A stretch of DNA of 53,407 nucleotides from positions 1-53,407 of the forward strand of contig DYTH01000003.1 of assembly GCA_020726025.1 (NCBI GenBank). The letters run 5' to 3'. Position numbers and translations under genes: made by a program. Under the pieces are notes generated by a model, which saw only the letters and a program-made list of their open reading frames with translations, had not been told where the DNA came from and did no database searches. This document shows, one piece after another, positions 2,291 to 18,821 of this stretch (positions are counted from its first letter, which is position 1; every line of letters starts with the position of its first letter). This stretch comes from Syntrophus aciditrophicus. GTDB lineage: Bacteria > Desulfobacterota > Syntrophia > Syntrophales > UBA5619.

Positions 2291-4446
2291 CAAAGCTGGT
2301 ACCTCTTCTGCAACATCTGGCGGAACAGATGGCCCCACTGGAAAAGCAGCGGCCGTGGCTTGAGGGTGAAACGGAGTTTCCCCGACATTCCATGCAGCAG
2401 TAGTACTTCCGGCGTCGGCACGATATCGGCATAAATCTGGAAAAAAGGCTCGGAGGCCCGGGTACCGGTTTCGTCTTTCACGGAGACGGCAAGGTCCCCG
2501 CCTCCCCGCCATCCCAGCGCGGCGGAGGGCAATTTCTCCTGCCGATAAGGAATGATCCGGAATTTCGATACGGCAAGATTTGTCTCGCCCTGCCCGTATA
2601 TCCTCACCTCGACTTTGCTAATACCGCCGACGAAAAGTTCCGCAGCCTCATCCTGGGAGACAACCGCCGAAAAGCGGAAGGAGCGCTCATTAACGATCTG
2701 TCCTATCACGCCCCCCCTGTCCAGCCAGGAACCGACCAGGTCGTTTATCCTGGGGGCCACCCAGATTCCCGCTTCTCTTGCCCTTACGGTGAGAGAAGCC
2801 CGTTGGAGTTCCAGATCCTTAAGTTTCGCGTCAATGGACTCAAGACGTTTTTGAAGCGGCTCAAGATCGGCGGTTTCCTTGTTGAGCGCCTTGAGAATGA
2901 GCGCCTCAGTTTCTTTCTTTTGGCCGATTACCGCCTCAGTTTCCAGTTCGAGCTCGCGGTCATGCATCTCCAGAAGCGCCATACCGGGGCTCACCTGTCG
3001 GCCCGAAGGAACGATCACCTTTTTCAGGTAGCCGGGGGCGTCGTTCACCACCTGGACGTACTGCATCGTTTCCATCACGCCCGGGGCGCGAAATCTGTCG
3101 GGAAACGGGATAAGGGCAAGAAAAAGAACCAGAAGCGAGAGGAACCCCGCAGAAACGAGGACGGCCCTCATTCTCGTCCGGGCCAGACGGGGGTTCGTGG
3201 AAAGGTAAATGAAAAACTTGTAAAGAGGAACCACCACCCAGGTCACGACGCCGATCAGCGCCATGATCATCCCGGCGAGCAGAAACTTGTCCGCTACGAA
3301 AAAGATGATCCCCGAAAAGACGATGACCCGGTAAATACCGCTCAGAATCGCGAAGATGGTCAGATAAACGGTTTCCCTGCGCCCCTGCGCCGGGCTGAAT
3401 GACTCCTTGTAGCCGAAGGCATACCTTTCCACGAGATGGCGGAGGTGCTTCATCGCCCGCGAGCTGAGGTTAGGAATGTCAAGTAAATCCGAGAGTATGT
3501 AGTAGCCGTCAAAGCGCAGAAGCGGGTTTCCGTTGAACAGGACAGTCGAGACGGAGGCAATGAACATGATGTTGTAGGCGAGGCTGTGGAGGGTCCCCTC
3601 CCCGGAGTAGGCCCAGACAAACGTGGCGATCGCCGCCACGAAAATCTCCATGATCATTCCGGCGGCGCCGACAAGCGCCCTCTCCCAACGGCTCCGGAAG
3701 GCCCAGCTCGATGTCGCGTCCATGTACGGCAACGGGGTAAAAACCAGCAGCATCACACCCATCGTATGCACCTCTCCGCCATAGCGGCGGCACACCAGGG
3801 CATGACCGAACTCGTGAATCGTCTTGACGACGATCAGCCCCAGATACAGCAGAAAGAGGTTGTCCGGGGCAAGTATCCCCTGCACCTGATCGAAGGCCAT
3901 ATCGAAACGATCCACTACCAGCTTGATCGCCCAGCCTGTTGAAACAAGCCACAACAGCGCCCCCAGCGGCGAGATAAGCAGCCGGAAAATCGGCATCAAC
4001 TGTTTAAGGAGATTATCAGGATCGAAAAGGGGCAGCCGCATGAACAGAATACTCATGAGTTTCGACTGCATCTCCCGCTGGCGGCGCTTCCGGTAACGCT
4101 CGAAAAGCTTGGCGCTGTCCGCAGGTTTTTCGAAATGGAGAAGGTTGGCGAAATAGAGCTGGGTCAGCAACTGAATCACGTCTTCCTGTCCCGGCGCGTT
4201 GTCGGGATCCCGATTGAGGCACTCCTCCCAGACTTCCGAGACGGTACGATCCGACCGGAGCCGGATCACGAAATCGTGCGCCTCCGACCGCAGACGAAAG
4301 AACTGGTTGTTAAAGGGGTCGCGGAACATGTACCATATCTCGCCGCGAAAGCGCCTTTTGCTTACCTGGACGGACGGGTGGAGGCTGACCTTGAGATCTG
4401 CCACGCGATACCACGACTCACTGAATGTTTTTCCAGCCTTTTGCAT
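2290..4446 (-). CDS. PqqD-like domain + M50 (site-2) membrane metalloprotease + HlyD-type adaptor fusion
   Basis: HEFGH zinc motif and NGNPLLRFDGYY (NPDG-type third ligand); multiple hydrophobic helices; C-terminal lipoyl/coiled-coil adaptor region. The N-terminal ~100 aa resemble a PqqD winged helix. Start MQKAGK at 4446. Confidence 0.85.
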   Translation of the reverse strand: MQKAGKTFSESWYRVADLKVSLHPSVQVSKRRFRGEIWYMFRDPFNNQFFRLRSEAHDFVIRLRSDRTVSEVWEECLNRDPDNAPGQEDVIQLLTQLYFANLLHFEKPADSAKLFERYRKRRQREMQSKLMSILFMRLPLFDPDNLLKQLMPIFRLLISPLGALLWLVSTGWAIKLVVDRFDMAFDQVQGILAPDNLFLLYLGLIVVKTIHEFGHALVCRRYGGEVHTMGVMLLVFTPLPYMDATSSWAFRSRWERALVGAAGMIMEIFVAAIATFVWAYSGEGTLHSLAYNIMFIASVSTVLFNGNPLLRFDGYYILSDLLDIPNLSSRAMKHLRHLVERYAFGYKESFSPAQGRRETVYLTIFAILSGIYRVIVFSGIIFFVADKFLLAGMIMALIGVVTWVVVPLYKFFIYLSTNPRLARTRMRAVLVSAGFLSLLVLFLALIPFPDRFRAPGVMETMQYVQVVNDAPGYLKKVIVPSGRQVSPGMALLEMHDRELELETEAVIGQKKETEALILKALNKETADLEPLQKRLESIDAKLKDLELQRASLTVRAREAGIWVAPRINDLVGSWLDRGGVIGQIVNERSFRFSAVVSQDEAAELFVGGISKVEVRIYGQGETNLAVSKFRIIPYRQEKLPSAALGWRGGGDLAVSVKDETGTRASEPFFQIYADIVPTPEVLLLHGMSGKLRFTLKPRPLLFQWGHLFRQMLQKRYQL

Positions 4447-4447
4447 A

Positions 4448-6304
4448 TCACCACCACAAAAGGATGCGGAGGAAGTCGATGGTCCTGTGAGCGAAAATCC
4501 AGAGGATGTTCCTCTTGCCGACGTTGATTTTCGCAACCCCGCTCATCCCGGGACGCCACCACGTCTCGGGTTTATCCGGAAGCAGGGCGCGGGCAAGATA
4601 GACGTTCCTTTCGTCTTGCGTGACGGCCACCGGATCCACGCGGTCAACCCGCACCGGAAATTTCAGATCCGGCCTCCCCACAAAGGCTATCTCACCGGCG
4701 CTTTTCACGGCTACTTCGTGAACGTCCCGTTCGTCAACCTTCATCTCGACGTACATATTTCCAAGTCGGGCCACCTTGAAAAGGATGTCTCCCTTTTTCA
4801 CCGGCGCGCCCAACAACTCTTTAAGGTCTCCCTCGACGACAATACCTTCAAAAGGCGCCCTCACGTCTGCATGATTCAGATGGTAGTGCACCATCTTGAG
4901 ACGGGCATCCGCCTGTTCTTCAAGCGCACGGGCGACCTTCATATCGGCCAGCGCCTTCTGGGCATAAGCCTTGGCGGCCTCCCTGACGTAACGGTTCTGA
5001 TTTGCCACCGCCGTCGCTTCCTCAAGAAGCAACTCGCGGGTGTCCAGTGAAAGGAGCGGACTCTCTTTCCTGACGCGGTCGCCTATCTTTACGTGCACCT
5101 GGTGAATATAACCATCAAAAGGCGCCGGAAGATACGAAAGATCATCCGTTTTCAAAATGAAAGGCGCCTCGACGCGGTACTCCATCTTTCCAAAAATCAA
5201 AACCGCCAGGGCGATTGCGACCAGAACGCCCAGCAACTTGGCGAAGGTGTGTTCAACACCGAGAAGTTTGCCCAGCGCCTCCCGCACAGAAGCAAAAATT
5301 CGCGCCCCGAACCAGCGGTCAAGACGTTTCAGGTCTCCGAGACGACGTGCCGCCTGGTCGCAGAAGACGCGCAGACCCCGGACATCCTCTTCAGAAAATG
5401 GTTCCTCGGAGCGCTCACAGGTAAGCACCGCCTCCGGATTGTCGTCAAGTCGGAGCGTAAGCGATGCGAGGTACCGCGCCCCCTGCTCCCGGGAATACTT
5501 TTCGTGGTCGCGGACAACCGAAAGAGCACCCTCCGGACGGGGCCAGATGATCTCCTCGTCCTGGTCAAGCGCCTCTTCCATCGCCGCCTCGATGGCCTGA
5601 ACTGCCGTCATTTTCTTCTCGAACTTCTCGATATGGCTGATAGCCTGCACCCGGACATAGCCGTCCTGCACCCAGCCAAGACTGACTCGATCGCATCGAT
5701 AGCGGGAGGCGATCTCGTTGCAGAAGGTCATCGCTGCGGCAACGTATCTTTTTTCGGCATTGAGAAGCACCATCAGGTCGAGCGCTTCGGAAAACTTCGC
5801 CACGTCGTTTCGGGCGCGGACAACCACATTTCCCAACTGGTAAACCGAGGGAGTGTCCGCAACCAGCTCAAGGCGGGTTTTGGCCTCAACAGCGGAGATA
5901 CGGGCGCCCTGGGAGATCAAAAACGTGGCAGCGCTGTTCCTTGCGTCTTCAGTTACAAGCTTGACCGCCACGACAAGACCTTCGGCGGGGATCGGCCCTT
6001 CCCATCCGACTGGTTCAGTGACAAACCCTTCACTCATCGCCATACCAGCCGCCAGCTCCATCCTTTTTATTATGTCGGCGCTTTTGGAAACCTTCACGGC
6101 GGGGTCCTGCCAGAGGGAAAGCTTTCGCCAGCCTTCGTTATTTTCCTGACGGAGAAGCAGCAACCCCATGTCCGCCTCTACCAGTCTCGCCGCCTCTTCG
6201 AGAAAGGCTGGCCAGAATTCGGAGGGGGCTCCAGTGAAGCGGCGAATCTGCGTTATCCTCTTCCCGACAGCTTCTCTGTGTTCACTTTCTTTTACGTTTT
6301 CCAT
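4448..6304 (-). CDS. GAF-domain-containing HlyD/RND periplasmic adaptor
   Basis: N-terminal GAF-like region (CDRVSLG...AMEEALDQ), one TM helix, then adaptor hallmarks (APFDGYI..V.VK.GD.V, RAPFEGIV, RPGMSG.AKI). Confidence 0.8.
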   Translation of the reverse strand: MENVKESEHREAVGKRITQIRRFTGAPSEFWPAFLEEAARLVEADMGLLLLRQENNEGWRKLSLWQDPAVKVSKSADIIKRMELAAGMAMSEGFVTEPVGWEGPIPAEGLVVAVKLVTEDARNSAATFLISQGARISAVEAKTRLELVADTPSVYQLGNVVVRARNDVAKFSEALDLMVLLNAEKRYVAAAMTFCNEIASRYRCDRVSLGWVQDGYVRVQAISHIEKFEKKMTAVQAIEAAMEEALDQDEEIIWPRPEGALSVVRDHEKYSREQGARYLASLTLRLDDNPEAVLTCERSEEPFSEEDVRGLRVFCDQAARRLGDLKRLDRWFGARIFASVREALGKLLGVEHTFAKLLGVLVAIALAVLIFGKMEYRVEAPFILKTDDLSYLPAPFDGYIHQVHVKIGDRVRKESPLLSLDTRELLLEEATAVANQNRYVREAAKAYAQKALADMKVARALEEQADARLKMVHYHLNHADVRAPFEGIVVEGDLKELLGAPVKKGDILFKVARLGNMYVEMKVDERDVHEVAVKSAGEIAFVGRPDLKFPVRVDRVDPVAVTQDERNVYLARALLPDKPETWWRPGMSGVAKINVGKRNILWIFAHRTIDFLRILLWW

Positions 6305-6374
6305 AGATCCTGCCCGTGATGGTTGTCTGGATTCTTTTTCGGCGCCTATTGAACAGAAGGTCGACCGGTATATC

Positions 6375-7253
6375 TCATCTTCCTAATAGCAGGAAACCGG
6401 CTACGCCAGGTCTCACCACACCGTCTTTGTTGTCAAATTCAACTTTTACCTCAAGCAGTCCACTCGCAGGATCGACCACAGGGGAGACAAACACCGTCTT
6501 ACCCTTGATAGGCATCGCGCTTTTTCCCGTGTTAATCTTGAGATTGACCATCTGGCCTGTGTGGAGACTTCGTCCGATCCATTCTTCCACGTTACAGACA
6601 AAAATGGACCGGCTGGTATCCACGAGGTGAACAAGGGGTTGATTCACTTCGACCCCCTCACCCTCATCAAAAAACAGTTTGATTACAGTACCGTCGATCG
6701 GCGATGCAAGACTTCTTCGGGAAAGGGCCTCAATGGCCATCCGGTACTCAATCTCCTCCCGTTCTTCCTGAGCTGTCAGCCGTTTCTGCTCGGCCACGGC
6801 CAGGTCGTACTCCAGCTTTAACTTCTCAAGTTCTTCCCGGCTTACCGAGGCGGTTGTATTGAAAAGCTCCTGATTCGAGTCCAAAATCCACTTGAGTGTT
6901 CGTACCCGGAATGCAGCCGCTTCCAACTCGGATGTGGCGTCCCGAATGAGTTTTCTTCTTTCGGTTTCCAGTTCATCCAGTTGTTTTTCCATCTCCAGAA
7001 GAACGGTTCCTTTGCTGACAACATCCCCTTCCCTGACGAGGATTTCAGAAACCACGCCGGCCATCGTTGCACTCAAATTGACATCCCGAAAGGGCTCCGT
7101 GATCCCGGCGACTGATATCCCCTCACCCGCCCGCACCATACACGGGAAAAACAGCGCGACAATCAGAAAAAACGTAATTCCAACAATCGCGGGAATCCGC
7201 ACCTTCCGGTGCGGCCTCACTTTCGGTTTGTTGTTGAGATGTATCATGGTCAT
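6375..7253 (-). CDS. Efflux RND/T1SS periplasmic adaptor subunit (MFP)
   Basis: N-terminal hydrophobic segment; GVVSEILVREGDVV, coiled coil, SPIDGTV, SPVVDPASG, RPG motifs. Confidence 0.85.
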   Translation of the reverse strand: MTMIHLNNKPKVRPHRKVRIPAIVGITFFLIVALFFPCMVRAGEGISVAGITEPFRDVNLSATMAGVVSEILVREGDVVSKGTVLLEMEKQLDELETERRKLIRDATSELEAAAFRVRTLKWILDSNQELFNTTASVSREELEKLKLEYDLAVAEQKRLTAQEEREEIEYRMAIEALSRRSLASPIDGTVIKLFFDEGEGVEVNQPLVHLVDTSRSIFVCNVEEWIGRSLHTGQMVNLKINTGKSAMPIKGKTVFVSPVVDPASGLLEVKVEFDNKDGVVRPGVAGFLLLGR

Positions 7254-8944
7254 TGTCGTTCGACCTCCTTGATTTCTACTCCTCTGTTCATCAGCAGAGC
7301 CCCTTCCGCCAAATCAAGCTGGTGGAGAGCTTTCATGAATTTGACAAGGGTTTCCGCCTCGCCCTCCCGTGCGTTGATCAGATTTTGCTCCCGTTCAAAC
7401 AGCATCCGGCTGTTGCTTTTTCCAATACGGAATCTTTCCGTTTCCGTATCGAGCAGTTTTCTGGTCATCTCGACAACCCCTGATTGTTCTTTGACCTGTT
7501 CCAGACTATTGTCCACATTCCGCAACGCGGTCTCAATAGAATTGGCGAGGGAGACTTCCACTGCCTTTACCTCCAGCAAAACCTGACGTCTGCGTTGCAA
7601 CGCGGCTGCATGTTCGCTCGAAGCCTTTTTATTCCCCCCCAACGGTATTTTTAATTCAAGTCCGACCATCCAGGATGGATGCTTCGCCTTCGTCGCGTCG
7701 TTGAATGGATCGGCGTATCTGTCGGTCAGTCCATTCAAGAAGTAACTGCCCTTCAAGTCAATTTGCGGCCATAACTGGTTTTTGGCATAGGCAAGCCGGA
7801 CATCCTCACGTTCGACTTTTTTTCGTACCGCCAGATACTCGCCGCGGAGTTTAAAAGATCGGTTGAGACTCTCTGCAAAATCTCGGTGGGTAACCTCTAT
7901 CGACGGACGATCCACTGTTTCGATCTCTTCTCCTGCCAGAGCCACTGAGGTGGAAAGGAATGTTCGAACCATGTTCATGGCGGCCACCACGGCCTGTTTA
8001 GCCTCGCTGACCAGCGACCGGCGGGCGGCGAGCGCTGCTTTGGCCTCGATAACCTCGGTCTCGGCCATTTTTCCCGTCTTGAGCCGGACAAAATTGTCAT
8101 GAAGAATTTTTTCGGCAGTCCGCGCCGAATCCCGACGCAGCAATAATTTTTCACGGGCGAGAAACAGATCCCAGTAAGCGGACATCGCCTCGGCAACCAC
8201 CCGCATGGCCTGCATCCGGTAGTTCTGGAAGGCGATGTCCCTATCCGCTTCGGCAATGCGTATCGGCGCCATTGTCGGCGCAACACCGGCATCTTTCAGA
8301 AGTGGCTGGCTGATGCTGGCCCCGAGCGTTGTCTGTTTGTACTTGTCGAATCCGTAGCCTTCATTCACGCTATCGGAAAAATCACGGTACGAATATGCCA
8401 GCTTGACCCTCCCGCCTACCGGGAGCAGTTCCTCGACGGCAAGTTGCTGGCTGTAACTGTCTTCCCAGAACTCCGGCAGAACAAAACCTCCGTTATTGAA
8501 AGTTGACATCATCTGTTGGGCGGTATTTTTTCTTTTATCGTACTGGAGCTGATAAGTCCCGAGCATCACAGGTTCAAAAACAGCCTTCGCGCCCCTGACA
8601 GCCTCACGGGTAACCGCCCACTCCGCATCTTGAAACGCGATCTGCTCGTTGTTTCTCATGACGCTGACGACATAGTCGTTCAAACTGACCAAAAGAGTTC
8701 GGGGAACCTTTGTGACTTGCGACGGCTTTCCGGCAATCCCGGCGACAGATTCTTTCGGTGATCCTTTCATCTCATCCGCTGCCGTAATGATTCCGGGGAA
8801 GCCCATACAAATCATTGCGGCAATCAGACAATGAGCAAATCGTCCCATCCCGGGGACGCTCCGTGATACGGCTCCGCTTCTATTTGCGGGCAAACGCCCC
8901 GATCGTAAAGACAAACCATCGCTCATAAGATACTCCACCACCAT
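7250..8944 (-). CDS. TolC-family outer membrane channel
   Basis: Two OEP-like repeats (AYWDL...; KNQLWPQIDL...ERFRIGKS). A signal-peptide-like segment after Met33 suggests the true start may be 8848. Confidence 0.85.
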   Translation of the reverse strand: MVVEYLMSDGLSLRSGRLPANRSGAVSRSVPGMGRFAHCLIAAMICMGFPGIITAADEMKGSPKESVAGIAGKPSQVTKVPRTLLVSLNDYVVSVMRNNEQIAFQDAEWAVTREAVRGAKAVFEPVMLGTYQLQYDKRKNTAQQMMSTFNNGGFVLPEFWEDSYSQQLAVEELLPVGGRVKLAYSYRDFSDSVNEGYGFDKYKQTTLGASISQPLLKDAGVAPTMAPIRIAEADRDIAFQNYRMQAMRVVAEAMSAYWDLFLAREKLLLRRDSARTAEKILHDNFVRLKTGKMAETEVIEAKAALAARRSLVSEAKQAVVAAMNMVRTFLSTSVALAGEEIETVDRPSIEVTHRDFAESLNRSFKLRGEYLAVRKKVEREDVRLAYAKNQLWPQIDLKGSYFLNGLTDRYADPFNDATKAKHPSWMVGLELKIPLGGNKKASSEHAAALQRRRQVLLEVKAVEVSLANSIETALRNVDNSLEQVKEQSGVVEMTRKLLDTETERFRIGKSNSRMLFEREQNLINAREGEAETLVKFMKALHQLDLAEGALLMNRGVEIKEVERQ

Positions 8945-9596
8945 CCTTTATTCATGTTATTCCGAAGAACCAACGATCATCGGAAGATAAGGACATTACA
9001 GGTCAACGACGCATCCCTGCTGTTTTCTGACATGAGCGTGTCGTCGATCTGCTTATGCAATCCGAATCCAGCTGCGCATGACAGGCCAATCTGTAAAGCC
9101 CGTGAAGGAAACGGCCCTGGTGGCAAGTCCAACCATGGCCGCCCGCGAAACACGCGTAAATCTATATGTGAAAAAGAAATGGTTGTCAATAGAAGGACCC
9201 ACTGATGAAGCATCATCTGCCACCATAATTATGAACTCTTCGCTGTGCGCCATGCTGACTTGCTCCAGATAAAGGGATATGCTCACTGTGTTCATCATCT
9301 CCGTGGTCATGAAATCAGTATAGCCATCCCATGGGCTGACCGCCGCATATTTATAACGGAATTTGGGTCCCGTGATTTTATATTTATTTTTCGTGAACGG
9401 GGTTAAACGAATATTTACATTCCAAATTGAATCAGGCTTGCATTGCATCTACATAACGGCGAGTAAGATAAAGAAAATCCAGTTTGGGAATGACAGGGAC
9501 GTAAAAGAGCAACGATCATCTTTTTTTAACTGCCTGTCCGGCGGGGCAAAATTTTTTTCAAGTCGCTTATTATCAAATAATATCAACCACATTACC

Positions 9597-9616
9597 TATG
9601 TCGGTGCACCGACATA
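9597..9616. promoter_or_regulatory. Perfect 20-bp palindrome TATGTCGGTGCACCGACATA; candidate parS-like site or operator
   Basis: Read directly from sequence. The 16-bp core TGTCGGTG-CACCGACA has the length and TGT...ACA ends of parS and lies 160 bp upstream of the parB-like gene. Function is inferred. Confidence 0.6.
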
Positions 9617-9776
9617 CCCCTTCAGTAACGGATGAATTGAATCCCCCTGAGCGGCGTCTGATTACGGCTTCGGGACATTGTCAAAAAAACTAAATATTGC
9701 AAATATTATCGAAATAATGGATATAGCGGGCAAAATGTCGCGTCCCCCAACCACCAAATTTTGAAAGGAGCCTCCC

Positions 9777-10565
9777 ATGGCAACAATGACCCCGCCTCCC
9801 TCGTCAACCTATCAGAAAGGACAATTCTACCAAATTCCCATCACGGACTTTAGACCGGACCCCGACCAGCCTCGCAAGTTCGTCGATCCCGGCCCTCTCG
9901 CCGAGCTTGCCGCCTCAATCGCCAAACACGGCATTGTCCAGCCGCTCCTTTTTCGCGATGCGGGGCAGGGTTGGCTCTATATCGTCTCCGGCGAACGCCG
10001 CTATCTCGCCGCCCAGCAGGTGGGTTTGACCGTGCTTCCGGCGATCTGCGTCGAGGGAAACCACGCCGAGATCGCCCTGGTCGAAAATTTACAGCGTCAG
10101 GATCTCACTGCCGTTGAGGAAGCGGAGGCGCTCCAGCGGCTTATGGACGAACAGAATTATACACAGGAACAGTTGGGAGACATACTCGGGAAAGCCCGCA
10201 CAACCATCACCGAGATAATGCTCCTGAACCGCCTTCCCCTGCAAATTCGCGACGAATGCCGTGGAGATCGCTCAATTTCCCGGGCTGCCCTGATCGAAAT
10301 TGCCCGTAAAAAACAGGAGCGTTCGATGTTCACCGCCTACACCGCCTTTCGGGACAAACAGCAACAGGGAAAGCGGGAAGTTAAGAAAAAAGACCCCAAC
10401 AATCCCGTTTACGCGCTGAGCACAGTGGAAAGGACCACGGCCAAAATCAGCACGATCGACACATCGGCATGGGCAGAAGACGACCGGGAGAGTTTCCGCG
10501 TCTCCCTCGTTAATCTCCAAACCGGGATAGAAAATTATCTGAATCCGCACCCGGAACTGGCATGA
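9777..10565 (+). CDS. Orphan ParB/Spo0J-family CTPase DNA-binding protein
   Basis: QPRK box, GIVQPL, SGERR CTP-binding motif, ENLQRQDL, HTH YTQEQLGDILGKARTTI; RBS AAGGAG. No adjacent parA. Confidence 0.9.
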   Translation: MATMTPPPSSTYQKGQFYQIPITDFRPDPDQPRKFVDPGPLAELAASIAKHGIVQPLLFRDAGQGWLYIVSGERRYLAAQQVGLTVLPAICVEGNHAEIALVENLQRQDLTAVEEAEALQRLMDEQNYTQEQLGDILGKARTTITEIMLLNRLPLQIRDECRGDRSISRAALIEIARKKQERSMFTAYTAFRDKQQQGKREVKKKDPNNPVYALSTVERTTAKISTIDTSAWAEDDRESFRVSLVNLQTGIENYLNPHPELA

Positions 10566-10770
10566 CGGCGCCTGAAGGGTAAACAGGAGTCATTCAGGGG
10601 TCAATCCGATGCCGGGAGGCGTTCATCCGGGAAAATGACGGGGCGGTCCGTGAAGAACACGGATTCGGGGACGCGGCAATCACTGAACATCGCCTCGCCA
10701 TGCCTTCGTGAAAAACTTAATCCCCTTGTATTTGCTTGCATCTATCAATAGTATCGGCCTGCATGGATAT

Positions 10771-10813
10771 GTGGCATCGATACGTGGCATTGACAAGTGG
10801 CATTGATGTTGCT
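10771..10813 (+). promoter_or_regulatory. Sigma54 (-24/-12) promoter of the pilin gene, with tandem 13-bp repeats of the -24 box
   Basis: TGGCATTGATGTTGCT at 10798-10813 fits GG-N10-GC. GTGGCATyGA starts at 10771, 10784 and 10797. Type IVa pilin genes are commonly RpoN-dependent. Confidence 0.75.
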
Positions 10814-10931: not shown

Positions 10932-11312
10932 ATGTTTAGTACATTTCACAAAAAAAACAGCAAGGGCTTCACGTTGATCGAACTCATGATCGTTATCGCC
11001 ATTATCGGCATCCTGGCGGCTATCGCCATCCCGCAGTTCACCTCCTACAAGACGAGAGGCTACAATACCGCGGCGAAATCCGACCTGAAAAATGCCTACA
11101 CGGCCGCGCAGGCCTATTTCAGCGACTACCCGGCTGCTACGATGGTCGTGGGGAATCTTACCTCGTACGGTTACAAAGCGTCATCGACAGTTACCCTTAC
11201 CGTTACGACCGGCACGCAGGCGGCTCTTGGCATGAGGGCTATTGGCTCCGCCGGAGGCGGCACAGGCAATATCACCTATTCCGTGAACAGCGCCGGAACG
11301 ATAACGCCTTAA
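10932..11312 (+). CDS. pilA: Type IVa major pilin
   Basis: Prepilin cleavage motif KG|[22 protein letters not shown] with E5; 114-aa mature protein; RBS AAGGAG. Confidence 0.95.
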
Positions 11313-11363: not shown

Positions 11364-11435
11364 ATGGCTGGGCCTTCGCTTCGAAAATATTGTAACCAGA
11401 CGCAAATCAGCAGGGTAAAAAGCAGGCGACTCCCG

Positions 11436-13211
11436 ATGGGAACAATTCCACGACAAAATAAAACATTTTTGATCTGCGCACTCCTTTCTCTGGCAGTCCT
11501 TGTCGTCTTCCGGCAGACGCTCACTTTCGATTTCATCGATTATGACGACGCGTTGTATGTCGTAAAAAACCCCTCTCTTCTCTATGGATTGACCAAAGAG
11601 GGGTTGGCGTGGGCCGCAGGCTCGCTGTACGCCGCGAACTGGCACCCCCTGACGCTGCTTTCTTTTCTGGTTGATTACGAGCTGTACGGCATGAATCCGG
11701 GCGGGTATCACCTGACAAACACGCTCATTCACCTTCTCGGCGGCCTGTTTTTGTTTTTCGCCTTCCGGGAGATGACCGGAAATAGCTGGAAAAGCTGCCT
11801 CGTTGCGGCAATTTTTCTTCTCCATCCCCTCCATGTGGAACCAGTCGCCTCGGTGGCGGGGCGAAAGGATGTTTTAAGCGGTTTTTTCTGGGCGCTGACG
11901 ATTCTCGCCTATGCCCGCTACACGAGAAAACCTGTTTTATGGGCTTATTTATTGACATGTTTCTTTTTTATCCTCGGGCTTATGTCAAAGGCGACCGTGG
12001 TTACACTGCCCCTCGTCCTTCTTCTCCTCGATTACTGGCCATTGAACCGATTTAACGAAATTTCCGAAGAACATTCAGCGCCTTTCGATAACCGTTTATT
12101 CTTCCCGAAGGCATCCCCTGCGCGACTGCTGACAGAGAAGATACCCTTCCTGCTTCTATCTGGCGTTGCGGGCCTGCTGACCTGGAAGGCCCAAACCGGC
12201 GCCGCGGCAATCGCCCCGCTGTTCGAGCTTGATTTCACCACCCGCGTCGGCAACGTGGCCCATTCCTTTCTCATGTACATCGGAAAGACCATCCGGCCGG
12301 TTGATCTTTCCTTCTTCTACCCGTATCATCCAGCCGGTAAAACCGGCTGGATTCTTCCGGCTGTGCTGCTTTTTACGGCCGTCGGCGCCCTCGGCCTGCG
12401 TCTGAGAAAATCCGCCCCCTGGTTTATCGTCGGCTGGCTGTGGTTTGTCCTGACGATGCTGCCGACAATCGGAATTGTCCAGGCAGGCTCGCAGTCCATG
12501 GCGGATCGTTACACCTATATCCCCATGATCGGCCTTTCCGTCATTGCCGTGTGGGGCAGCGGCATCTACAAACCATCCCGAAAGGGCAACATGATATTTG
12601 CCGCAACCTGGCTTGTCGTTTTATCGCTGCTTATCGCCGACAGCAAATGCCAGACAACATACTGGCAGAACAGCCGCACCCTTTTTGAACACGCGCTTTC
12701 CACAACAGAGGGCAATTATCTTGCCCACAATAATCTGGGGGCGTTCTTTATGAAACAGAATCAATACGATTCGGCCGAACGCCATTTTCGCGAGGCGCTG
12801 CGGATTAAGCCCGGCTATGCCGATGCGGGAATCAATCTGGCGCAGATTATGCTCATAAAAGGTAAAACCGTCGAAGCCGAGACCTCGTTTCGCAATGTAC
12901 TGAACTTCCATCCCGATAACGACCGCGCCAGAAGACTGCTCTGCGATTTCCTGCTGACAACGGGAAAAAACAGGGAGGCGATTGTGTGCTATGATAAGGC
13001 CGCAGCGGCAAGCCCCGACAATCCGGAACTGCAAAACAACCTCGCTGTGGCGCTCGCGGGAAACAACCAGATCGATGAGGCGATTATTCATCTCGAACGG
13101 GCGCTGCGCCTGCAACCGGGCTTCAAGGACGCAAAGAGAAATCTCGACCTGCTCCGGACGAAAAATGAAACCACCGGCAAAAAGACAGCCGCTTCCCCGA
13201 AAACCCCCTGA
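11436..13211 (+). CDS. TMTC-like GT-C membrane glycosyltransferase with C-terminal TPRs
   Basis: FIDYDD acidic loop, NWHPLT, HPLHVEPVASVAGRKDVL and ADRYTYIP parallel TMTC O-mannosyltransferase motifs; many TM helices; TPR repeats (AHNNLG, LQNNLA). Start uncertain (11364 or 11436). Confidence 0.8.
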   Translation: MGTIPRQNKTFLICALLSLAVLVVFRQTLTFDFIDYDDALYVVKNPSLLYGLTKEGLAWAAGSLYAANWHPLTLLSFLVDYELYGMNPGGYHLTNTLIHLLGGLFLFFAFREMTGNSWKSCLVAAIFLLHPLHVEPVASVAGRKDVLSGFFWALTILAYARYTRKPVLWAYLLTCFFFILGLMSKATVVTLPLVLLLLDYWPLNRFNEISEEHSAPFDNRLFFPKASPARLLTEKIPFLLLSGVAGLLTWKAQTGAAAIAPLFELDFTTRVGNVAHSFLMYIGKTIRPVDLSFFYPYHPAGKTGWILPAVLLFTAVGALGLRLRKSAPWFIVGWLWFVLTMLPTIGIVQAGSQSMADRYTYIPMIGLSVIAVWGSGIYKPSRKGNMIFAATWLVVLSLLIADSKCQTTYWQNSRTLFEHALSTTEGNYLAHNNLGAFFMKQNQYDSAERHFREALRIKPGYADAGINLAQIMLIKGKTVEAETSFRNVLNFHPDNDRARRLLCDFLLTTGKNREAIVCYDKAAAASPDNPELQNNLAVALAGNNQIDEAIIHLERALRLQPGFKDAKRNLDLLRTKNETTGKKTAASPKTP

Positions 13212-13253
13212 TCGCCGCAACAGCGGCAAACATACCAAAAGGCGTGATTCCTT

Positions 13254-14981
13254 ATGGACAAACAAGAGACGACAGTGCCAGACAGAAAAAGAAACCTTGC
13301 GCTGCTTGCGGTTTTTGCGGCTTCCGCAGCGATAAAATCCGCCATCTGCATTCTTGCGACCGATCCGATCATATTCAACAAATATCCATATTTTGCCCAG
13401 AAGCTGAGCTCAGGGGCGGATATCGGCGAAAGAATCCTCGATCTGAGCCCGCTTTACCTCTTTCTCGTTACGATATTTTTTGAAATTTTCGGCCCCAACT
13501 GGGATATTCTGACGGCGCTGCAGATAATCCTCGGCAGTTTCAATTGCGTCATCGTGGGGCTTGTCGGGACAAGACTATTCAACCCGGCGGTCGGGATACT
13601 CTCCGCACTCATCCTCATGCTTTACGGAAACATGACCCTGATCGAATGCGCCATCGAGCCGGAGGGCCTCTTTGTTTTCCTCAATTCACTGACGGTTCTT
13701 GCCCTGCTGTGGGCCGCCGGTGATAAAACATCGCCACCGCACCCGGCAAAATGGCTCCCCGGGGGGATATTGATTGGTCTTGCGGCTGTCGCAAAGGCGA
13801 ATGCGCTTTTGATAATCCCCGGCGCGGCCGTCTGGATATGGCTATCCACGAAGGAAAGACGCATCCGGTCTTTGACGCTGCTTCTTCTGGGGGCAGCGCT
13901 CGTAATTGCTCCGGTAACAATCAGGAATTTCTGTCTGTTTGACGATTTTGTCCTTTTGACCGCCGACGGCGGCAAGGTGTTTTTTCATGGCAACGGCCCC
14001 GGCGCAACCGGCATGGAAAGGGCGGACATGCCCGACCAGGGCCTTATCGAAGAGGGGCAAACCGAGCCTGATTACGCCCATGCACTGTTCCGTCAAAAGG
14101 CCCGCGAGGCGACAAAGACCAGCCTCAAACCATCGGAATGTTCATCTTACTGGTTTTCACAAACCCAAAGGCATCTACTCGCCGCTCCAAAGGCCGCACT
14201 TTCCGGTTTTCTGAAGAAATTCCTTCTATTCTGGAACAATTACGAGGTGCACGACCTCGATACAACCTATAAGAGCTATAAAATAATCGGGAAATGGCCG
14301 TTTCTTACTGCGGGGATAATTGCCGCCGCGGGCATCCTCGGCATGATCTTTTCCGCAGGCATGCTCAGGCGGTTTTTTCTTTTGTACTGGATGGTTGCGA
14401 TATACATCGTTTCGGTCGTTGTCTTTTTTGCCGCTTCGCGTTACCGCCTGCCCGCCTTCAATTTTCTCGCAATCTTTGCCGCTGGTTTTCTGTATGAACT
14501 GTACGTTGCCATCAGCGGCAAAAAGCTTGAAAAAACCATCGTCGCCTTTCTGTTGATCCTGGTTTTCCTGGCATTCACCCACCTGCCCTTACGTGACGAA
14601 ATCAGAAAATACGACCTCTGGCAACACATTTCCCGGATAGATTACAGCCTCGGCGGAAGAATGCTGTTCAAAAAAGGAAATTTCCCGGAAGCAGCCCGTG
14701 AATTTGAGAAGGTTGTTTCTGCGGCCCCCGATTTTGTTCCGGCAGTCAACTACCTCGGCAAGACCTGCGCCATTCTCGGCAACTACGACTGCGCGTCGGA
14801 CTGTTTCCGGAAAGTCATCCGGTTAGCGCCCGCTTCCGACGAGGGCTACCTGAATGCCGGCCTTCTGCTTGAACTCCGGGGAAATAAAAGGGAGGCAAGG
14901 CGCTATTTTGAAAAAGCGCAGGCGTTAAACCCCAGAAACGTAAAGACCAGAGATCATCTGAACACCATAAGCCGCGAATGA
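13254..14981 (+). CDS. ArnT/PMT-like (GT39/GT83-type) membrane glycosyltransferase with TPRs
   Basis: Polytopic membrane protein with SPLY, IAPVTIRN, FFHGNGPGATG and SRYRLP motifs; C-terminal TPRs. Confidence 0.75.
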   Translation: MDKQETTVPDRKRNLALLAVFAASAAIKSAICILATDPIIFNKYPYFAQKLSSGADIGERILDLSPLYLFLVTIFFEIFGPNWDILTALQIILGSFNCVIVGLVGTRLFNPAVGILSALILMLYGNMTLIECAIEPEGLFVFLNSLTVLALLWAAGDKTSPPHPAKWLPGGILIGLAAVAKANALLIIPGAAVWIWLSTKERRIRSLTLLLLGAALVIAPVTIRNFCLFDDFVLLTADGGKVFFHGNGPGATGMERADMPDQGLIEEGQTEPDYAHALFRQKAREATKTSLKPSECSSYWFSQTQRHLLAAPKAALSGFLKKFLLFWNNYEVHDLDTTYKSYKIIGKWPFLTAGIIAAAGILGMIFSAGMLRRFFLLYWMVAIYIVSVVVFFAASRYRLPAFNFLAIFAAGFLYELYVAISGKKLEKTIVAFLLILVFLAFTHLPLRDEIRKYDLWQHISRIDYSLGGRMLFKKGNFPEAAREFEKVVSAAPDFVPAVNYLGKTCAILGNYDCASDCFRKVIRLAPASDEGYLNAGLLLELRGNKREARRYFEKAQALNPRNVKTRDHLNTISRE

Positions 14982-15059
14982 TTGCCGCCCGTCGCCATTT
15001 GACTATTAGCAGCGCTCAGGATAAGAGGCTGCCCGACAAAGAACAGTGAGCCCGTTGAG

Positions 15060-16703
15060 ATGGACGATATGAAGGCAAAACCCGAAGATGAGCAAAAAGT
15101 TACCTTGATGCGGCTGGCGATCATGGCTGGTCTGGCGTTTCTTGTTATCTCCGTGTATTGGCCTGCGGCATGGTTTGATTTTATCGAACTGGACGACAAC
15201 CTCTACCTCCTCGAAAATCCGAATATTAAAATGGGGCTGTCGCCGGCGGGAATCAAATGGGCTTTTACCACCTTCCATACAACAAACTGGCATCCCCTGA
15301 CGTGGATTTTGCTGCTTGCCGAATTCAGCCTCTCTGGCCTCAATCCGGCAGGTTTTCACATTGTCGGCGTCCTTCTGCACATTATTAATACGGCGTTGCT
15401 TTTTCTGGTCATGGTGCGGATAACGGGCGGGAAATGGAAGGCAATGGCCGCAGCGGCCCTGTTTGCCGTTCACCCCATGAATATCGAATCCGTGGCATGG
15501 ATCGCGGAGCAAAAGAATCTCCTCAGCACGCTGTTCTGGTTTCTGACGATATTGGCCTATCTGCGTTATGCCAAAAAACCTGGGCCGTCAATTTATCTGG
15601 CAACGCTCGGGCTTTTTGCGCTGGGTCTGATGGCCAAACCGATGCTGGTGAGTCTTCCCTTCATTCTGCTGCTTTTCGATTACTGGCCGCTCGGCCGTCT
15701 TTACCCCGTTCATTTTGTCGAAGGCGCGGAGGCCAACAAAAAAACGGGCATAAAAAAACTGCTAATCGAAAAAATCCCGTTTTTCTCCCTGGCGTTTTTT
15801 TCCGTCCTGCTGACGCTTTACGCGGCCCATGCCGGCGGCGCCATGAAATCACTTGAGACGTTTCCTCTTTACGGTCGCATGGCAAACGCACTGCTCTCCT
15901 ATTCGGCCTACGTTGCCATGCTGCTCTGGCCGTTTGATCTTTCCATCTTTTACCCGCATTCCTCCTTAAAGCCGCTCGGAGACATTTCCGCCGCCTTTTT
16001 CGCCCTATCGGCGACATCCGGGCTGGTTGTATGGAAAGGCTCGAAATACCGATATCTTACGGTCGGATGGCTCTGGTATCTGGTAACGCTTCTGCCGGTC
16101 ATCGGGCTCGTCCAGGTCGGTTTCCAGGAGATGGCCAATCGGTACATGTACGTCCCGTCTATCGGCATTTTTTTGATTTTTGCAATGGGACTTCCGGATA
16201 TCGCAAAACGGTTCAGTAAGATGAAACCCTTTCTGCCGGCGCTGATGGCCCTCCCGGTTGTACTTTTTACCGTCAGCTCGGCTTTTGAGCTTCCCCACTG
16301 GCAAAACACCGAAACGGCATTTACGAGGGCGCTGGAGGTTACAAAAGACAATCATGTCGCCCTGCTCGGCCTCGGCAATCTCTACCAGAAAAAAGGGGAT
16401 ATCAAGGCGGCAGAGACGCATTTCCGCGCGGCCCTCCGTGTAAAGCCGGATTACGCGGAGGCGCACAACAACCTTGCCGTGCTCCTGATGCGAAGCAATC
16501 GCGGCAAGGAGGCGGAGTTCCACCTGCGGGAGGCGATAAGGCATCTCCCGCGTGCGGCCAGGTCCCACAACAACCTTGGCGCCCTGCTCGCCGGACAGGG
16601 AAGATTGCAGGAGGCGCGCCCCTGCTTTGAAAAGGCGCTTGAGATAAACCCGGATTACGCGGAGGCCCGTGCGAACCTCTCTTTGTTACTGGCGGGCAAA
16701 TAG
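15060..16703 (+). CDS. Second TMTC-like GT-C glycosyltransferase with TPRs (paralog of 11436-13211)
   Basis: FIELDD, NWHPLT, HPMNIESVAWIAEQKNLL, LLFDYWPL, EKIPF, ANRYMYVP; TPR repeats AEAHNNLA, SHNNLG. Confidence 0.8.
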   Translation: MDDMKAKPEDEQKVTLMRLAIMAGLAFLVISVYWPAAWFDFIELDDNLYLLENPNIKMGLSPAGIKWAFTTFHTTNWHPLTWILLLAEFSLSGLNPAGFHIVGVLLHIINTALLFLVMVRITGGKWKAMAAAALFAVHPMNIESVAWIAEQKNLLSTLFWFLTILAYLRYAKKPGPSIYLATLGLFALGLMAKPMLVSLPFILLLFDYWPLGRLYPVHFVEGAEANKKTGIKKLLIEKIPFFSLAFFSVLLTLYAAHAGGAMKSLETFPLYGRMANALLSYSAYVAMLLWPFDLSIFYPHSSLKPLGDISAAFFALSATSGLVVWKGSKYRYLTVGWLWYLVTLLPVIGLVQVGFQEMANRYMYVPSIGIFLIFAMGLPDIAKRFSKMKPFLPALMALPVVLFTVSSAFELPHWQNTETAFTRALEVTKDNHVALLGLGNLYQKKGDIKAAETHFRAALRVKPDYAEAHNNLAVLLMRSNRGKEAEFHLREAIRHLPRAARSHNNLGALLAGQGRLQEARPCFEKALEINPDYAEARANLSLLLAGK

Positions 16704-16787
16704 TTTTCAAATTCATTGAGGACGACGACAATCTCTCTTTTTCGAAAATCGCAAACTCGAGCTGGAACTCTTGCTGAAAGGGATAAC

Positions 16788-18821
16788 ATGGGAGCCGATC
16801 ACCTTCCTTGCAATAAACTGACATTCGCTGAAGCGACTGTTCCTGCCGGCAGAATGCCATCTTCAGGGAATGTGATCGAAAATCGACGGGGTTCGGCAAA
16901 AATTTATCTCCTCGTCCTTGCAGTCGCGTCCATCCTTATCACGGCGGCGATATGGCATTTTCACGGCAATACGCAACTGCTTGTCAATGAAAAAGACGCC
17001 CAGTGGATACGGTTCCCCGAGCCGTTTCAACTCAGGATTCATCACGCCCGAAAGATCAAAACCAGTTTCAGAACTATTGTAAAAGCCCCTGTTATCCGCA
17101 GAACGACCGTTTTGACCTTTCGTTCGGTCGGGGAGGCAACCGTGTTTCTCGACCAGAAAGAGCTGGTTGCCACTCCTTCTTCCCTCACGAAAGCCATCGG
17201 AGAAAGACAGCGGGTGGATCTGACTCCGTTTCTTACGCCGGGCAGTCATGTGCTCCGTATTGACGTATCGAACACAACGGGCCATCCGCTCCTCATCGCC
17301 TGGTCAGAGAGTCCGGGATTGTTTACCGGGGAAAGCTGGGAGGTCAGCAAAGACGGATATCACTGGCTTTTTGCCGTCGCTGCCGAAAAAAACCGCCGCC
17401 TCAACATCTCGCAGACATTCCCCCGCCTGGGTCCGAGCATTCGCTCCCTGGCCCCGTTTTACATATCCGTTTTCTTTCTTTTTTTCTTCTGGAGTCTCCG
17501 GAAAGACAAAAATGCGGAAGGAACATCTTTAATAAAACCTGTCAATGCCCGATCAGTCCGGTGGTTTGTCATGCTGGCGTGGCTGTTTATGGCCATCAAC
17601 AATTTCTGGAAACTTCCCGTGGATATGGGAATGGACTTCAAAGGACACATGCAATACATCAGCTACGTGGCGCAATACGGCCGCATCCCTCTGGCGACCG
17701 ATGGATGGCAGATGTTTCAGCAGCCGCTTTATTACCTTCTTGCCGCAGGTCTCTACAATCTTTCACACATTTTTTTCAATGACGACGTTTCAATCAGGGT
17801 TATAAAACTCATCTCCGTTCTCTGCGGGATGCTCCAGGTAGAGATAGCGTACCGCGCTGTTAAACTGCTCTATCCACGCCGAGAGTCAATACAGATATTC
17901 GGCGTCGTACTGGCTGGATTCATGCCGATGAACCTGTACATGTCCCAGTCAATCGGGAACGAACCTCTTGCCGCCCTTCTCACCTCCCTTGCGATTCTGG
18001 CAGCGATAAGAATGGCCCTGACGGATAACGCTGCCACCCGGGAGCGATTGCTGCTGCTCGGTTTTTTACTCGGGCTTGCGCTTTTGGCCAAGGTATCGGC
18101 AATCTTGATCTTCCCGCCGCTCCTTCTTTTCATCTCTTTTGAAGTGCTCGCCTCAAGCGGAACAATCCGGGTCAGGGCTAAACTGGCAGCAAGTTCAGTG
18201 ACGGTGGCGTTGTTGACCGCTTTTTTGGCGAGTGGATGGTACTACATCCACAACTACATGGAAATGGGACATTTTTTCATAGGTGGATGGGACATTGCGC
18301 GGAAGATAGTCTGGTGGCAGGACCCGGGATATCGCACCCTCCGGCAACTCTACTTTTTTGGCGAATCGCTGTTTTATCCCGTTTTTTCCTCGCTCTACGG
18401 ATTCTGGGATTCCATCTACTCGTCTCTATGGGCGGACGGCTATTTGAGCGCCTACAACCGGCCCCCATGGAATTACCCGCTCATGATAACGGGGATGTGG
18501 CTGGCGCTTTTCCCTTCAGCGGGGATTCTCGTCGGCATCGGGGCGGCGCTGCGGATGGCTGCGGGAAAGTTGCGGCGTATTCTTCTGATGTCGGCAGGAA
18601 GTGTTCTACTCTATCTTTCCGCAATCTTGTACATATTTATAACCGTCCCTTTCTTAAGCTCCGCCAAGGCAAGCTACGCGCTGGGCCTTCTTCCCTGCTT
18701 TGCGCTGCTTGCCGCCGCCGGATTTGATGTCCTGACTAAAAACAGATATCTGGAAGCGGCTTCCCAAGCTCTTTTTGCCTGCTGGGCGATCGGCTCGTAT
18801 CTTTGCTGCTTCGCGCTATAG
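16788..18821 (+). CDS. GT-C (GT39-like) membrane glycosyltransferase with an N-terminal soluble beta-sandwich-like domain
   Basis: D.KGH..YI and QQPLYY loop motifs, NEPLA, GLALLAK, GWYYIHN. The N-terminal segment (AQWI...DLTPFLTPGSHVLRIDVSN...W) resembles glycosidase sugar-binding domains. Start taken at ATG 16788 after GAAAGGGA. Confidence 0.65.
   Translation: MGADHLPCNKLTFAEATVPAGRMPSSGNVIENRRGSAKIYLLVLAVASILITAAIWHFHGNTQLLVNEKDAQWIRFPEPFQLRIHHARKIKTSFRTIVKAPVIRRTTVLTFRSVGEATVFLDQKELVATPSSLTKAIGERQRVDLTPFLTPGSHVLRIDVSNTTGHPLLIAWSESPGLFTGESWEVSKDGYHWLFAVAAEKNRRLNISQTFPRLGPSIRSLAPFYISVFFLFFFWSLRKDKNAEGTSLIKPVNARSVRWFVMLAWLFMAINNFWKLPVDMGMDFKGHMQYISYVAQYGRIPLATDGWQMFQQPLYYLLAAGLYNLSHIFFNDDVSIRVIKLISVLCGMLQVEIAYRAVKLLYPRRESIQIFGVVLAGFMPMNLYMSQSIGNEPLAALLTSLAILAAIRMALTDNAATRERLLLLGFLLGLALLAKVSAILIFPPLLLFISFEVLASSGTIRVRAKLAASSVTVALLTAFLASGWYYIHNYMEMGHFFIGGWDIARKIVWWQDPGYRTLRQLYFFGESLFYPVFSSLYGFWDSIYSSLWADGYLSAYNRPPWNYPLMITGMWLALFPSAGILVGIGAALRMAAGKLRRILLMSAGSVLLYLSAILYIFITVPFLSSAKASYALGLLPCFALLAAAGFDVLTKNRYLEAASQALFACWAIGSYLCCFAL

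Follow-up and report, generated by a model that had tools for sequence, protein, structure and literature searches.

Orphan ParB-like proteins of Syntrophales and candidate operators on a portable promoter-like module

Introduction

KorB of plasmid RK2 binds one palindrome that is repeated at many promoters of its replicon. ParB-family regulators that act outside segregation (KorB, VirB, BisD and Noc) form an active field, and the known regulators are single proteins on plasmids or integrative and conjugative elements (ICEs). Here we examine an orphan ParB-like gene and the perfect 20-bp palindrome upstream of it in a 53,407-nucleotide stretch of DNA from Syntrophus aciditrophicus (GenBank assembly GCA_020726025.1, contig DYTH01000003.1, positions 1 to 53,407, forward strand), the whole of which we call the window. 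The palindrome is the dyad of a short module dispersed through this genome and through other genomes of the order Syntrophales, and the bases of such dyads covary with two residues of the adjoining ParB-like proteins at the positions with which ParB and Noc read their sites. We put at roughly 60% the probability that these proteins are regulators of the KorB/VirB kind, each recognizing an operator of its own that is carried by portable promoters of toxin–antitoxin, defence and glycan genes. For the window protein, the likeliest target is the gene that encodes it.

KorB has been described as both a sliding clamp and a repressor (excerpts of PMC11790492). The window protein resembles it in combining a ParB_N CTPase fold with a helix-turn-helix (HTH), and the KorB structures 8qa8 and 8qa9 are among its fold and sequence matches. 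As with KorB, one palindrome recurs at several promoters of a replicon: there are five identical dyads in this genome and sets of 14, 11 and 6 in the relative G324, the promoters being recognized by consensus match. The window protein differs in being chromosomal and in lacking a ParA/IncC partner or a conserved KorA/TrbA-like neighbour, as judged from the neighbouring genes of the homolog loci examined; a clamp-locking partner could be encoded elsewhere. It also differs in that each genome can hold several paralogs with different dyads, in that the dyad is fixed within a conserved portable promoter, and in that its sequence is much closer to chromosomal ParB/Noc (8e-43) than to KorB (9e-16).

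Noc of Firmicutes is likewise an orphan ParB paralog with dispersed 16-bp palindromes and with specificity set at residues 173 and 201 (excerpts of PMC7383237), and it carries an N-terminal membrane-targeting amphipathic helix (excerpts of PMC8429893). The window protein differs from Noc in scoring below the cut-off of the Noc model, in coming from another lineage, in having multiple paralogs per genome and in having its sites within promoter modules. VirB of Shigella and BisD of ICEclc are ParB-like, CTP-dependent clamps that have taken on transcriptional regulation and load onto DNA at specific sites (excerpts of PMC10770331 and PMC12409273). In contrast to the proposed role here, they are activators or anti-silencers on a plasmid or an ICE, a comparison drawn from descriptions rather than sequences. 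VirB sites lie upstream of target promoters (excerpts of PMC10770331). Unlike at VirB targets, repression is suggested here because the dyad lies just downstream of a -10-like hexamer.

With canonical ParABS the window system shares the N-terminal and DNA-binding domains, an arginine at the equivalent of residue 173, and the outer TGT...ACA of a 16-bp core at the same distance from the axis as in parS. It lacks ParA, an LGKGL-type motif and ParB_C, and its site has only the outer TGT/ACA in common with canonical parS (TGTTNCACGTGNAACA), the inner 10 of 16 bases being different. Orphan ParBs with clear ParB similarity, encoded outside parAB and often linked to mobile DNA, have recently been catalogued (excerpts of PMC12704722, PNAS 2025), and the window protein matches that description. 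Within these excerpts the main text makes no mention of palindromes, polysaccharide or toxin–antitoxin genes, and the supplements may list the present family; it also reports that neither sequence nor AlphaFold3 is a reliable guide to nucleotide specificity. None of six dyad 16-mers was found in the literature searched for them and, within that search, the portable promoter element of this order is previously undescribed. Among the matches listed, no paper pairs ParB with Syntrophus, Smithella or Syntrophales.

Results

An orphan ParB-like protein and its palindrome

The gene spans positions 9777–10565 on the plus strand and encodes 262 amino acids, as supported by its open reading frame (ORF) and by Pfam, NCBIfam and structure matches. 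A ParB_N (CTPase-fold) domain covers residues 16–106 (9822–10094; Pfam E 2.5e-21) and holds QPRK (box I), GERR (box II; residues 72–75, nucleotides 9990–10001) and ENLQRQDL (box III); across the 32 family sequences of alignment A1, QPRK, GERR and ENLQRQD do not vary. A ParB-type HTH (HTH_ParB) follows at residues 108–164 (10098–10268; Pfam E 1.1e-12) and is supported by PDB and Foldseek matches, the latter to ParB–parS and Noc–NBS (Noc binding site) complexes. The AlphaFold2 model (mean pLDDT 82.7) places three helices in the C-terminal region, approximately residues 176–262 (10302–10562), and a Pfam scan of the protein returned no ParB_C (PF23552) match. A two-copy complex prediction of residues 176–262 scored 0.41 (mark, 0.42), which bears neither way on dimerization.

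Foldseek and PDB profile searches ranked ParB–CDP/CTPgS, Noc and KorB as the top structure matches. The nearest PDB structures are Myxococcus, Bacillus and Caulobacter ParB bound to nucleotide or parS, followed by Noc; profile E-values for ParB/Noc run from 8e-43 to 7e-36 (8e-43 for ParB and 4.5e-39 for Noc), and KorB is clearly weaker at 9e-16. At the domain level the protein passes the NCBIfam ParB/RepB/Spo0J model TIGR00180 (126.3 bits versus a cut-off of 58.45). The best NCBIfam match is the Noc model TIGR04285 (E 2.2e-40), but its 138.6 bits fall short of the 315 cut-off.

The perfect palindrome TATGTCGGTGCACCGACATA lies at 9597–9616, 160 nt before the start codon at 9777, and is our proposed operator on the grounds of arm covariation and residue–base covariation. 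It occurs once in the window: no second match was found with up to 3 mismatches allowed, and 0 of 100 shuffles matched. Genome-wide, its 16-mer core TGTCGGTGCACCGACA has five exact occurrences in 2.16 Mb and 149 contigs (on C45, C46, which is the window, C133, C141 and C146), a count far beyond chance; none was found in the genome with one or two mismatches, and a reversed control pattern gave 0. The basic features named by the original prediction, which was made from the letters of this stretch, were thus borne out: a perfect 20-bp palindrome 160 bp upstream of ParB, an intact GERR motif, and a recognition region with the strings KARTTITE and SRAAL, both present in the translation. The absences that it described also hold, with no ParA among nine ORFs scanned around the gene with Pfam and no ParA-activating (L/F/I)G(K/R)G(L/F/I) motif before GERR in the translation, read directly. 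A canonical parA–parB pair is encoded on another contig, its ParB having LGKGL at residues 7–11 and a ParB_C domain, and exact canonical parS 16-mers stand at two places on other contigs (C139:27195 and C48:6034).

The palindrome is the dyad of a dispersed promoter-like module

All five copies of TGTCGGTGCACCGACA are flanked by approximately 60 conserved bases on one side and by CCCC on the other, and their sequence further downstream differs. Alignment of modules (A2) revealed a fixed order: a terminator-like hairpin, CAAAAYTTTTT, a -35-like hexamer, GTCG, a TAATAT-like hexamer, the dyad and CCCC. The spacing is 16 nt to the TAATAT-like hexamer and then approximately 13 nt to the dyad, the latter distance being constant within 1 nt, and columns 8–16 of the alignment are invariant or nearly so. 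From the family consensus, TTGACC-16-TAATAT, which a promoter scan called outright in the copy at locus L042, we infer that the modules are promoters.

In the window the module, approximately 82 bp long, occupies 9541–9622 on the plus strand (covariance model R1, E 1.5e-13) and is also detected by an nhmmer profile. Its 5' part is a terminator-like hairpin (9531–9548) with an A/T run, together 9531–9558 on the plus strand (promoter/terminator scan; consensus GGCAAAACTTTTT). The sigma-70-type hexamers TTTCAA (9556–9561) and TAATAT (9578–9583), recognized through alignment A2, are separated by 16 nt and span 9556–9583 on the same strand. The palindrome begins 13 nt past the -10-like hexamer and would occupy approximately +7 to +26 if the TAATAT promoter is used.

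The nhmmer profile and R1 together place 18 modules in this genome, most of them with an inverted repeat other than that of the window (such as GGGGTGCCGGAGCTCCGGCACCCC on C107 and GGAGTGGCGGAATTCCGCCACTCC on C75). R1 found modules in 18 of 151 genomes sampled from the order, and counts in relatives reached at least 30 in G324, at least 30 in G335, 15 in G337 and 12 in G002; because R1 scored at most 30 per genome, the G324 and G335 figures are lower bounds. The module is a short, conserved non-coding unit present in many copies per genome, as in the class of repetitive extragenic palindromes (REP) and miniature inverted-repeat transposable elements (MITE). Comparison of homologous copies revealed clean swaps of the dyad within flanks that are 87–89% identical. 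No Rfam family was found on modules or leaders, the sole match being a tRNA on L003.

Dyad bases covary with two residues of the adjoining protein

We aligned 46 homologs accompanied by an inverted repeat of the family (CGG) type, leaving out L201, whose repeat is not of that type. Two positions stood out from the alignment alone, the arginine of 'GKAR' (window R141, codon 10197–10199, plus strand) and the arginine of 'SISR' (window R169, codon 10281–10283, plus strand). In Caulobacter ParB, R173 hydrogen-bonds guanine 1 of parS, and the equivalent glutamine of Noc contacts adenine 1 of NBS (excerpts of PMC7383237). Residue 201, 28 residues past 173 (glycine in ParB, arginine in Noc), reads base 6, and positions 173 and 201 switch ParB/Noc specificity; these contacts come from ParB–parS and Noc–NBS co-crystals (same excerpts). 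Because of their spacing and flanking motif, we equate R141 with ParB R173 and R169, which lies 28 residues further on, with ParB G201 and Noc R186. The geometry of the DNA agrees: counting outwards from the dyad axis, the G in TGTCGG of the window takes position 7, like parS G1, and the 4-nt centre has its first base at position 2, like base 6.

Base 1 follows residue 173 in all 46 of 46 pairs, with G opposite R in 34, A opposite Q in 4, and T opposite E, K, P or V in 8. Base 6 and residue 201 pair less strictly (T-R 19, T-K 1, T-P 1, A-K 11, A-R 2, C-K 7, C-R 5), with nine exceptions to the T-R, A-K and C-K pairings. Changes can be followed among close relatives. L030, with R173, K201 and TGTCGG-AGCT, branches within a clade marked by Q173, R201 and TATCGG-TG(C/T)A, and the sisters L042 and L043 differ both in K/R201 and in their centre (AGCT or TGCA). 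L202 is an independent Q-A case, and L201 also pairs Q173 with A.

The genome of G324, 100% complete by markers, suggests how several pairs could share one genome. Its 31 modules fall into three dyad classes: 14 copies of TACGTCGG-CGCG, one adjoining a paralog on C56; 11 copies of TATGCCGG-AGCT, one adjoining a paralog on C51; and 6 copies of TGTATCGG-AACT (TATCGG-AACT), none adjoining a paralog. The C56 and C51 paralogs are R173/K201. For the third class we predicted from the code a reader with Q173 before inspecting the remaining paralogs, on C38 and C35, which proved to be Q173/K201. Similarly, six modules of G337 carry TGTCGG-AGCT, the dyad that adjoins its C43 paralog. In G324 and G337 the pattern is one of distinct regulons with a reader apiece.

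Homologs are accompanied by palindromes of the same design

Close homologs share 36–73% identity over their whole length and are publicly annotated only as 'ParB family'. The subfamily (E<=1e-45) is encoded by 37 of the 339 genomes from the order, the highest copy number in any one being 7; at E<=0.001, fragments counted, one genome has up to 11 matches. Among 92 subfamily proteins, 88 have GERR, 80 box III, 86 box I and 3 a ParA-binding-type motif. A metagenome scan with the single protein yielded 15 loci, and most of what a contig scan with alignment A1 recovered was canonical ParB and Noc. By their record titles, related loci come from Syntrophus, Syntrophales, Syntrophaceae and 'Deltaproteobacteria' metagenome-assembled genomes (MAGs). 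No ParA partner was found in the homolog loci except at the distant L037, which has ParA and a Replic_Relax gene.

Many homologs have a palindrome of the same design 50–130 nt past their stop codon, preceded by the module (for example, AATGCCGGTGCACCGGCATT, ATAGTGTCGGAGCTCCGACACTAT and AGTATCGGTGCACCGATACT). We quantified this association with the N5CGG-N4-CCGN5 repeat at no more than one mismatch, counting homologs with at least 300 nt of downstream sequence. A looser criterion (any 8-nt arms with up to one mismatch around a 4-nt centre) was replaced, since it matched 116 of 445 random background windows. Between -45 and +460 nt of homolog stops the repeat reached 0.74 per kb (39 in 53,021 bp) versus 0.032 per kb in the rest of the same loci (20 in 627,461 bp), and 39 of 103 homologs had one in the scanned interval. 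The window's own 16-mer, exact or with one mismatch, has a single site in 60 relatives, in G027. A count of the palindrome across the genome and at homologs, as the original prediction had proposed, therefore gave five exact copies here and a link to homologs that is seen only with different palindromes.

By approximate rates (two R1 searches differed in filter strictness), modules are present in 23 of the 37 subfamily-positive genomes, and 10 genomes of the 151-genome sample have modules and no subfamily member at E<=1e-45. Four of those ten (G003, G005, G007 and G009) have partial subfamily matches, and G086 has a broken copy beside a module. The G086 remnant (C138:870–1250) is a ParB-like C-terminal end with three stop codons directly upstream of the module and appears to be a decayed gene–module pair.

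Arm covariation points to a double-stranded DNA site

Across 30 aligned modules, 95.4% of arm cells pair: of 240 arm cells, 35 are changed on both sides and 1, of wobble type, on one side. Sliding the partners by 1–3 columns as a control dropped pairing to 24–41%. At least 7 of the 8 arm positions are paired in 65 of 72 distinct modules. The 4-nt centre is itself self-complementary (TGCA, AGCT, CGCG, AATT or ATAT) in 17 of 28 dyad types, against an expected 1 in 16, and single arm mismatches are of G.T type in 2 cases and of other types in 17. Full dyad symmetry and the lack of wobble intermediates point to recognition of the dyad as double-stranded DNA by a dimer rather than as an RNA hairpin.

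We also considered established element types that share parts of this design. Integron attC sites were set aside, the dyads being perfect and an R/L box pattern being absent; TGT-N10-ACA upstream activator sites of the NifA type, since no sigma-54 promoter follows; and an intrinsic terminator, since no T-run follows the dyad.

Genes beside modules

In many loci, Pfam-supported genes on the same strand lie within approximately 400 nt past the dyad. They include glycan genes (ABC-2/Wzt, three DegT-type aminotransferases, a Polysacc_synt flippase, epimerases, Bac_transf, GT9 and a hexapeptide transferase), toxin–antitoxin genes (HicAB, MNT-HepT, DUF433-PIN, RHH, ParE, TumE, YafQ and DUF2442), and defence or other genes (type I restriction-modification, GmrSD, Fic/Schlafen-type proteins and PAS regulators). 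Upstream of ParB-like genes we found Wzy_C, epimerase and glycosyltransferase genes. On C75 of this genome, Wzy_C, a module, MNT-HepT and ABC-2-Wzt follow one another with no ParB-like gene; in a relative's corresponding locus, L031, a ParB-like gene stands just before the module. Membership of a PADLOC defence system was not accepted on two weak matches (mad1, 3.7e-5; type II methyltransferase, 4.7e-5).

Window neighbourhood

Upstream of the ParB-like gene, a divergent minus-strand operon (302–8944) encodes an unusual export set: SecA-like (302–2512), M50 peptidase-like (2290–4536), GAF-HlyD (4448–6304), HlyD (6375–7253) and OEP (7250–8944). Between it and the module lies a minus-strand ORF of 131 amino acids (9053–9448) with no Pfam match. 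A divergent OEP–HlyD pair also stands beside the ParB-like gene at L041 of a relative. Downstream, a type IV pilin-like gene (10932–11312, plus strand) is preceded, within 10770–10813, by three GTGGCAT(C/T)GA repeats and a sigma-54-type promoter, TGGCAT (10798–10803)-N5-TTGCT (10809–10813), an arrangement suggesting that the pilin is under enhancer-dependent regulation in which the ParB-like protein plays no part. The original prediction had proposed the export operon, the pilin locus or both as targets of the ParB-like protein. The evidence supports neither assignment: the module points to the ParB-like gene, away from the export operon, and the pilin gene has its own sigma-54-type promoter. 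Beyond the pilin gene, 11364–20988 holds at least five consecutive PMT_2 glycosyltransferase-like paralogs, three with TPR matches, and may be a pilin or surface glycosylation locus.

Sequence surroundings of the modules

A non-coding repeat of approximately 490 bp that contains a module is present at C141:4201–4692, C3:431–946, C113:48–300 and C41:1–152, with copies 87–96% identical; the C141 copy has TGTCGGTGCACCGACA where those on C3 and C113 have TGGCGGAATTCCGCCA. An inner segment of approximately 100 nt recurs on C8, C23, C26 and C40 and in a same-genus genome. The gap between pyrD and hrpA that holds the C141 module (C141:4099–4705) measures 0.6 kb here, approximately 1.5 kb in G003 (C68) and approximately 27 kb in G002 (C15), and has the look of a site of variable insertion.

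A conserved leader of approximately 105 nt follows the dyad in three modules, each of which has a different dyad (C133:29085–29190, C107:5706–5815 and C98:9680–9791; L003, L245 and L248). A nested structure of 30 pairs is predicted for it, 3 with compensatory changes, from only 3 sequences. Separately, an unrelated dispersed perfect palindrome, GGGCACGGCATGCCGTGCCC, has 23 exact copies and 2 with one mismatch in the genome (for example, C8:7011, C8:9475 and C39:12584) and is not detected by the module profile.

Discussion

Built on module anatomy, copy numbers, gene–dyad adjacency, covariation and fold, the mechanism that we propose would run as follows. The orphan ParB-like protein would bind the module dyad as a dimer through its ParB-type HTH. 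R141 would read the G seven positions from the axis, in the manner of ParB R173 and parS guanine 1, and R169 the base at the second position, in the manner of Noc R186 and NBS base 6. Since the dyad would lie at approximately +7 to +26 of the transcript, the bound protein would most likely repress the module promoter. In the window this would amount to autoregulation, with control in trans of the four other identical copies in the genome. The intact residues of boxes I, II and III raise the possibility that the protein, like KorB, VirB and BisD, also forms a sliding clamp whose closure depends on CTP. In relatives, several paralogs would each serve their own dyad class, common to 2–14 modules.

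A broader version, which we hold only tentatively, is that the order carries chromosomal sets of mutually distinct ParB-like CTPase/operator pairs, forming parallel insulated regulons for accessory DNA on portable terminator–promoter cassettes. The proposal of a new ParB–site pair stands insofar as homologs adjoin palindromes of the same design and the residues covary in 46 of 46 cases; it needs amending insofar as the site is not unique to its intergenic region and belongs to an 18-copy module. The same evidence divides the outcome that would have spoken against that proposal, namely an unrelated dispersed repeat family: the palindrome does belong to a dispersed repeat, one that is not unrelated to the protein.

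Several observations weigh against regulation of the modules by ParB-like proteins. In a tree test with independent pairs, 4 of 4 pairs on well-supported branches went in the same direction, a number too small to reach significance (p = 0.125), and part of the gene–dyad correlation is co-inheritance because gene and dyad are physically linked. In the scanned interval, 64 of 103 homologs have no CGG-type repeat, some of these having related designs with TCGA, TCAG or TCGC beside the centre, and R1 detects no module in 14 of the 37 genomes with a subfamily member. In G335, a genome of 60 contigs that is 100% complete by markers, R1 matches number at least 30, yet the only ParB found is a canonical one and there is no ParB-like protein of the subfamily. 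All 20 of the 20 modules retrieved from it (L216–L241) carry TATGCCGG-CGCG, that is, the dyad TATGCCGGCGCGCCGGCATA; some lie within a longer shared repeat, and the element seems to have multiplied in a recent burst. It follows that modules can be maintained and proliferate in a genome that has no ParB-like gene of the subfamily. This genome itself has at least 8 dyad classes for one intact ParB-like protein and one C-terminal fragment, the latter at the start of contig C6 and followed by its own module; sequence missing from the MAG (2.16 Mb versus 3.1–4.0 Mb in same-genus genomes) may hide paralogs, which is unproven. G002 similarly has 8 dyad classes in 10 modules.

The window locus adds points of its own to this list. 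A second promoter-like site, TTGTCA-18-AATATT (9678–9707, plus strand; consensus match only), separates the palindrome from the ParB-like start codon. Because its -35 equivalent, TTTCAA, is weak, the window copy is called by the scan only as a hairpin and T-run, with no promoter. A dyad upstream of the gene is atypical, being found otherwise, among the loci examined, only at L169, which has dyads on both sides of its ParB-like gene. The other four copies of TGTCGGTGCACCGACA are poorly informative: two lie approximately 105 nt from contig ends, one (C45) is followed by what reads, by eye, as a decayed PIN-like frame, and one sits in the 490-bp non-coding repeat.

Part of this evidence would suit a module that is mainly a mobile or recombinogenic cassette boundary, MITE/REP- or integron-like, with the dyad serving a recombinase or transposase or forming a DNA hairpin and the ParB-like gene a mere neighbour or cargo. 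Copy numbers of at least 30 per genome and the near-identical G335 copies fit such an element, as do the variable lengths of the pyrD–hrpA gap and the two identical palindromes that bracket TumE, ParE and DUF4258 toxin–antitoxin genes at L042. Contigs of four metagenomes end or start at the palindrome with summed depth raised there, as fits a repeat, and IS110 and DDE transposase genes lie near some loci. However, no recombinase or transposase family is consistently adjacent in the loci examined, and clean dyad swaps between flanks 87–89% identical are not the pattern of recombination breakpoints. Nor would a boundary account for 46 of 46 covariation at the ParB/Noc read-out positions, or for the Q173 paralogs that the code predicted in G324. 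We therefore regard a boundary function, the leading alternative, as unlikely to be the main explanation. It is compatible with promoter control, as a portable promoter with a ParB-like operator would be both.

Two further accounts concern what is done at the dyad. A Noc- or centromere-like protein could load at dispersed palindromes to organize, tether or mark regions such as accessory islands, with no promoter control. That Noc is the best NCBIfam match, that PDB profile matches to ParB/Noc are far stronger than to KorB, and that 16–20-bp palindromes are dispersed like NBS sites all agree with this; a score well short of the Noc cut-off, the presence in one genome of several paralogs whose dyads differ, and a dyad held within 1 nt of its distance from the -10-like hexamer, which points to promoter control, make it a rather remote prospect. 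Alternatively, the inverted repeat could act as a 5' RNA stem-loop in mRNA stability or translation, the ParB-like protein being unrelated. Transcription from the -10-like hexamer would indeed give an 8–12-bp stem with a 4-nt loop near the 5' end, and the arms co-vary strongly. Yet a single one-sided change among 240 cells, 'loops' that are self-complementary in 17 of 28 types, mismatches that are not of G.U type (2 versus 17), the lack of an Rfam match and a stem sequence that tracks protein residues render an RNA role highly improbable.

If regulation of the modules by ParB-like proteins is correct, it would add to the known ParB-family regulators a chromosomal, multi-paralog case in which specificity has diversified repeatedly along the two-residue ParB/Noc code. 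The published model of ParB/Noc specificity would become testable on natural variants, and the order would offer a natural library of mutually distinct ParB/site pairs for DNA labelling or synthetic circuits. For Syntrophales themselves, ParB-like proteins would be tied to the control of toxin–antitoxin, defence and O-antigen-type loci.

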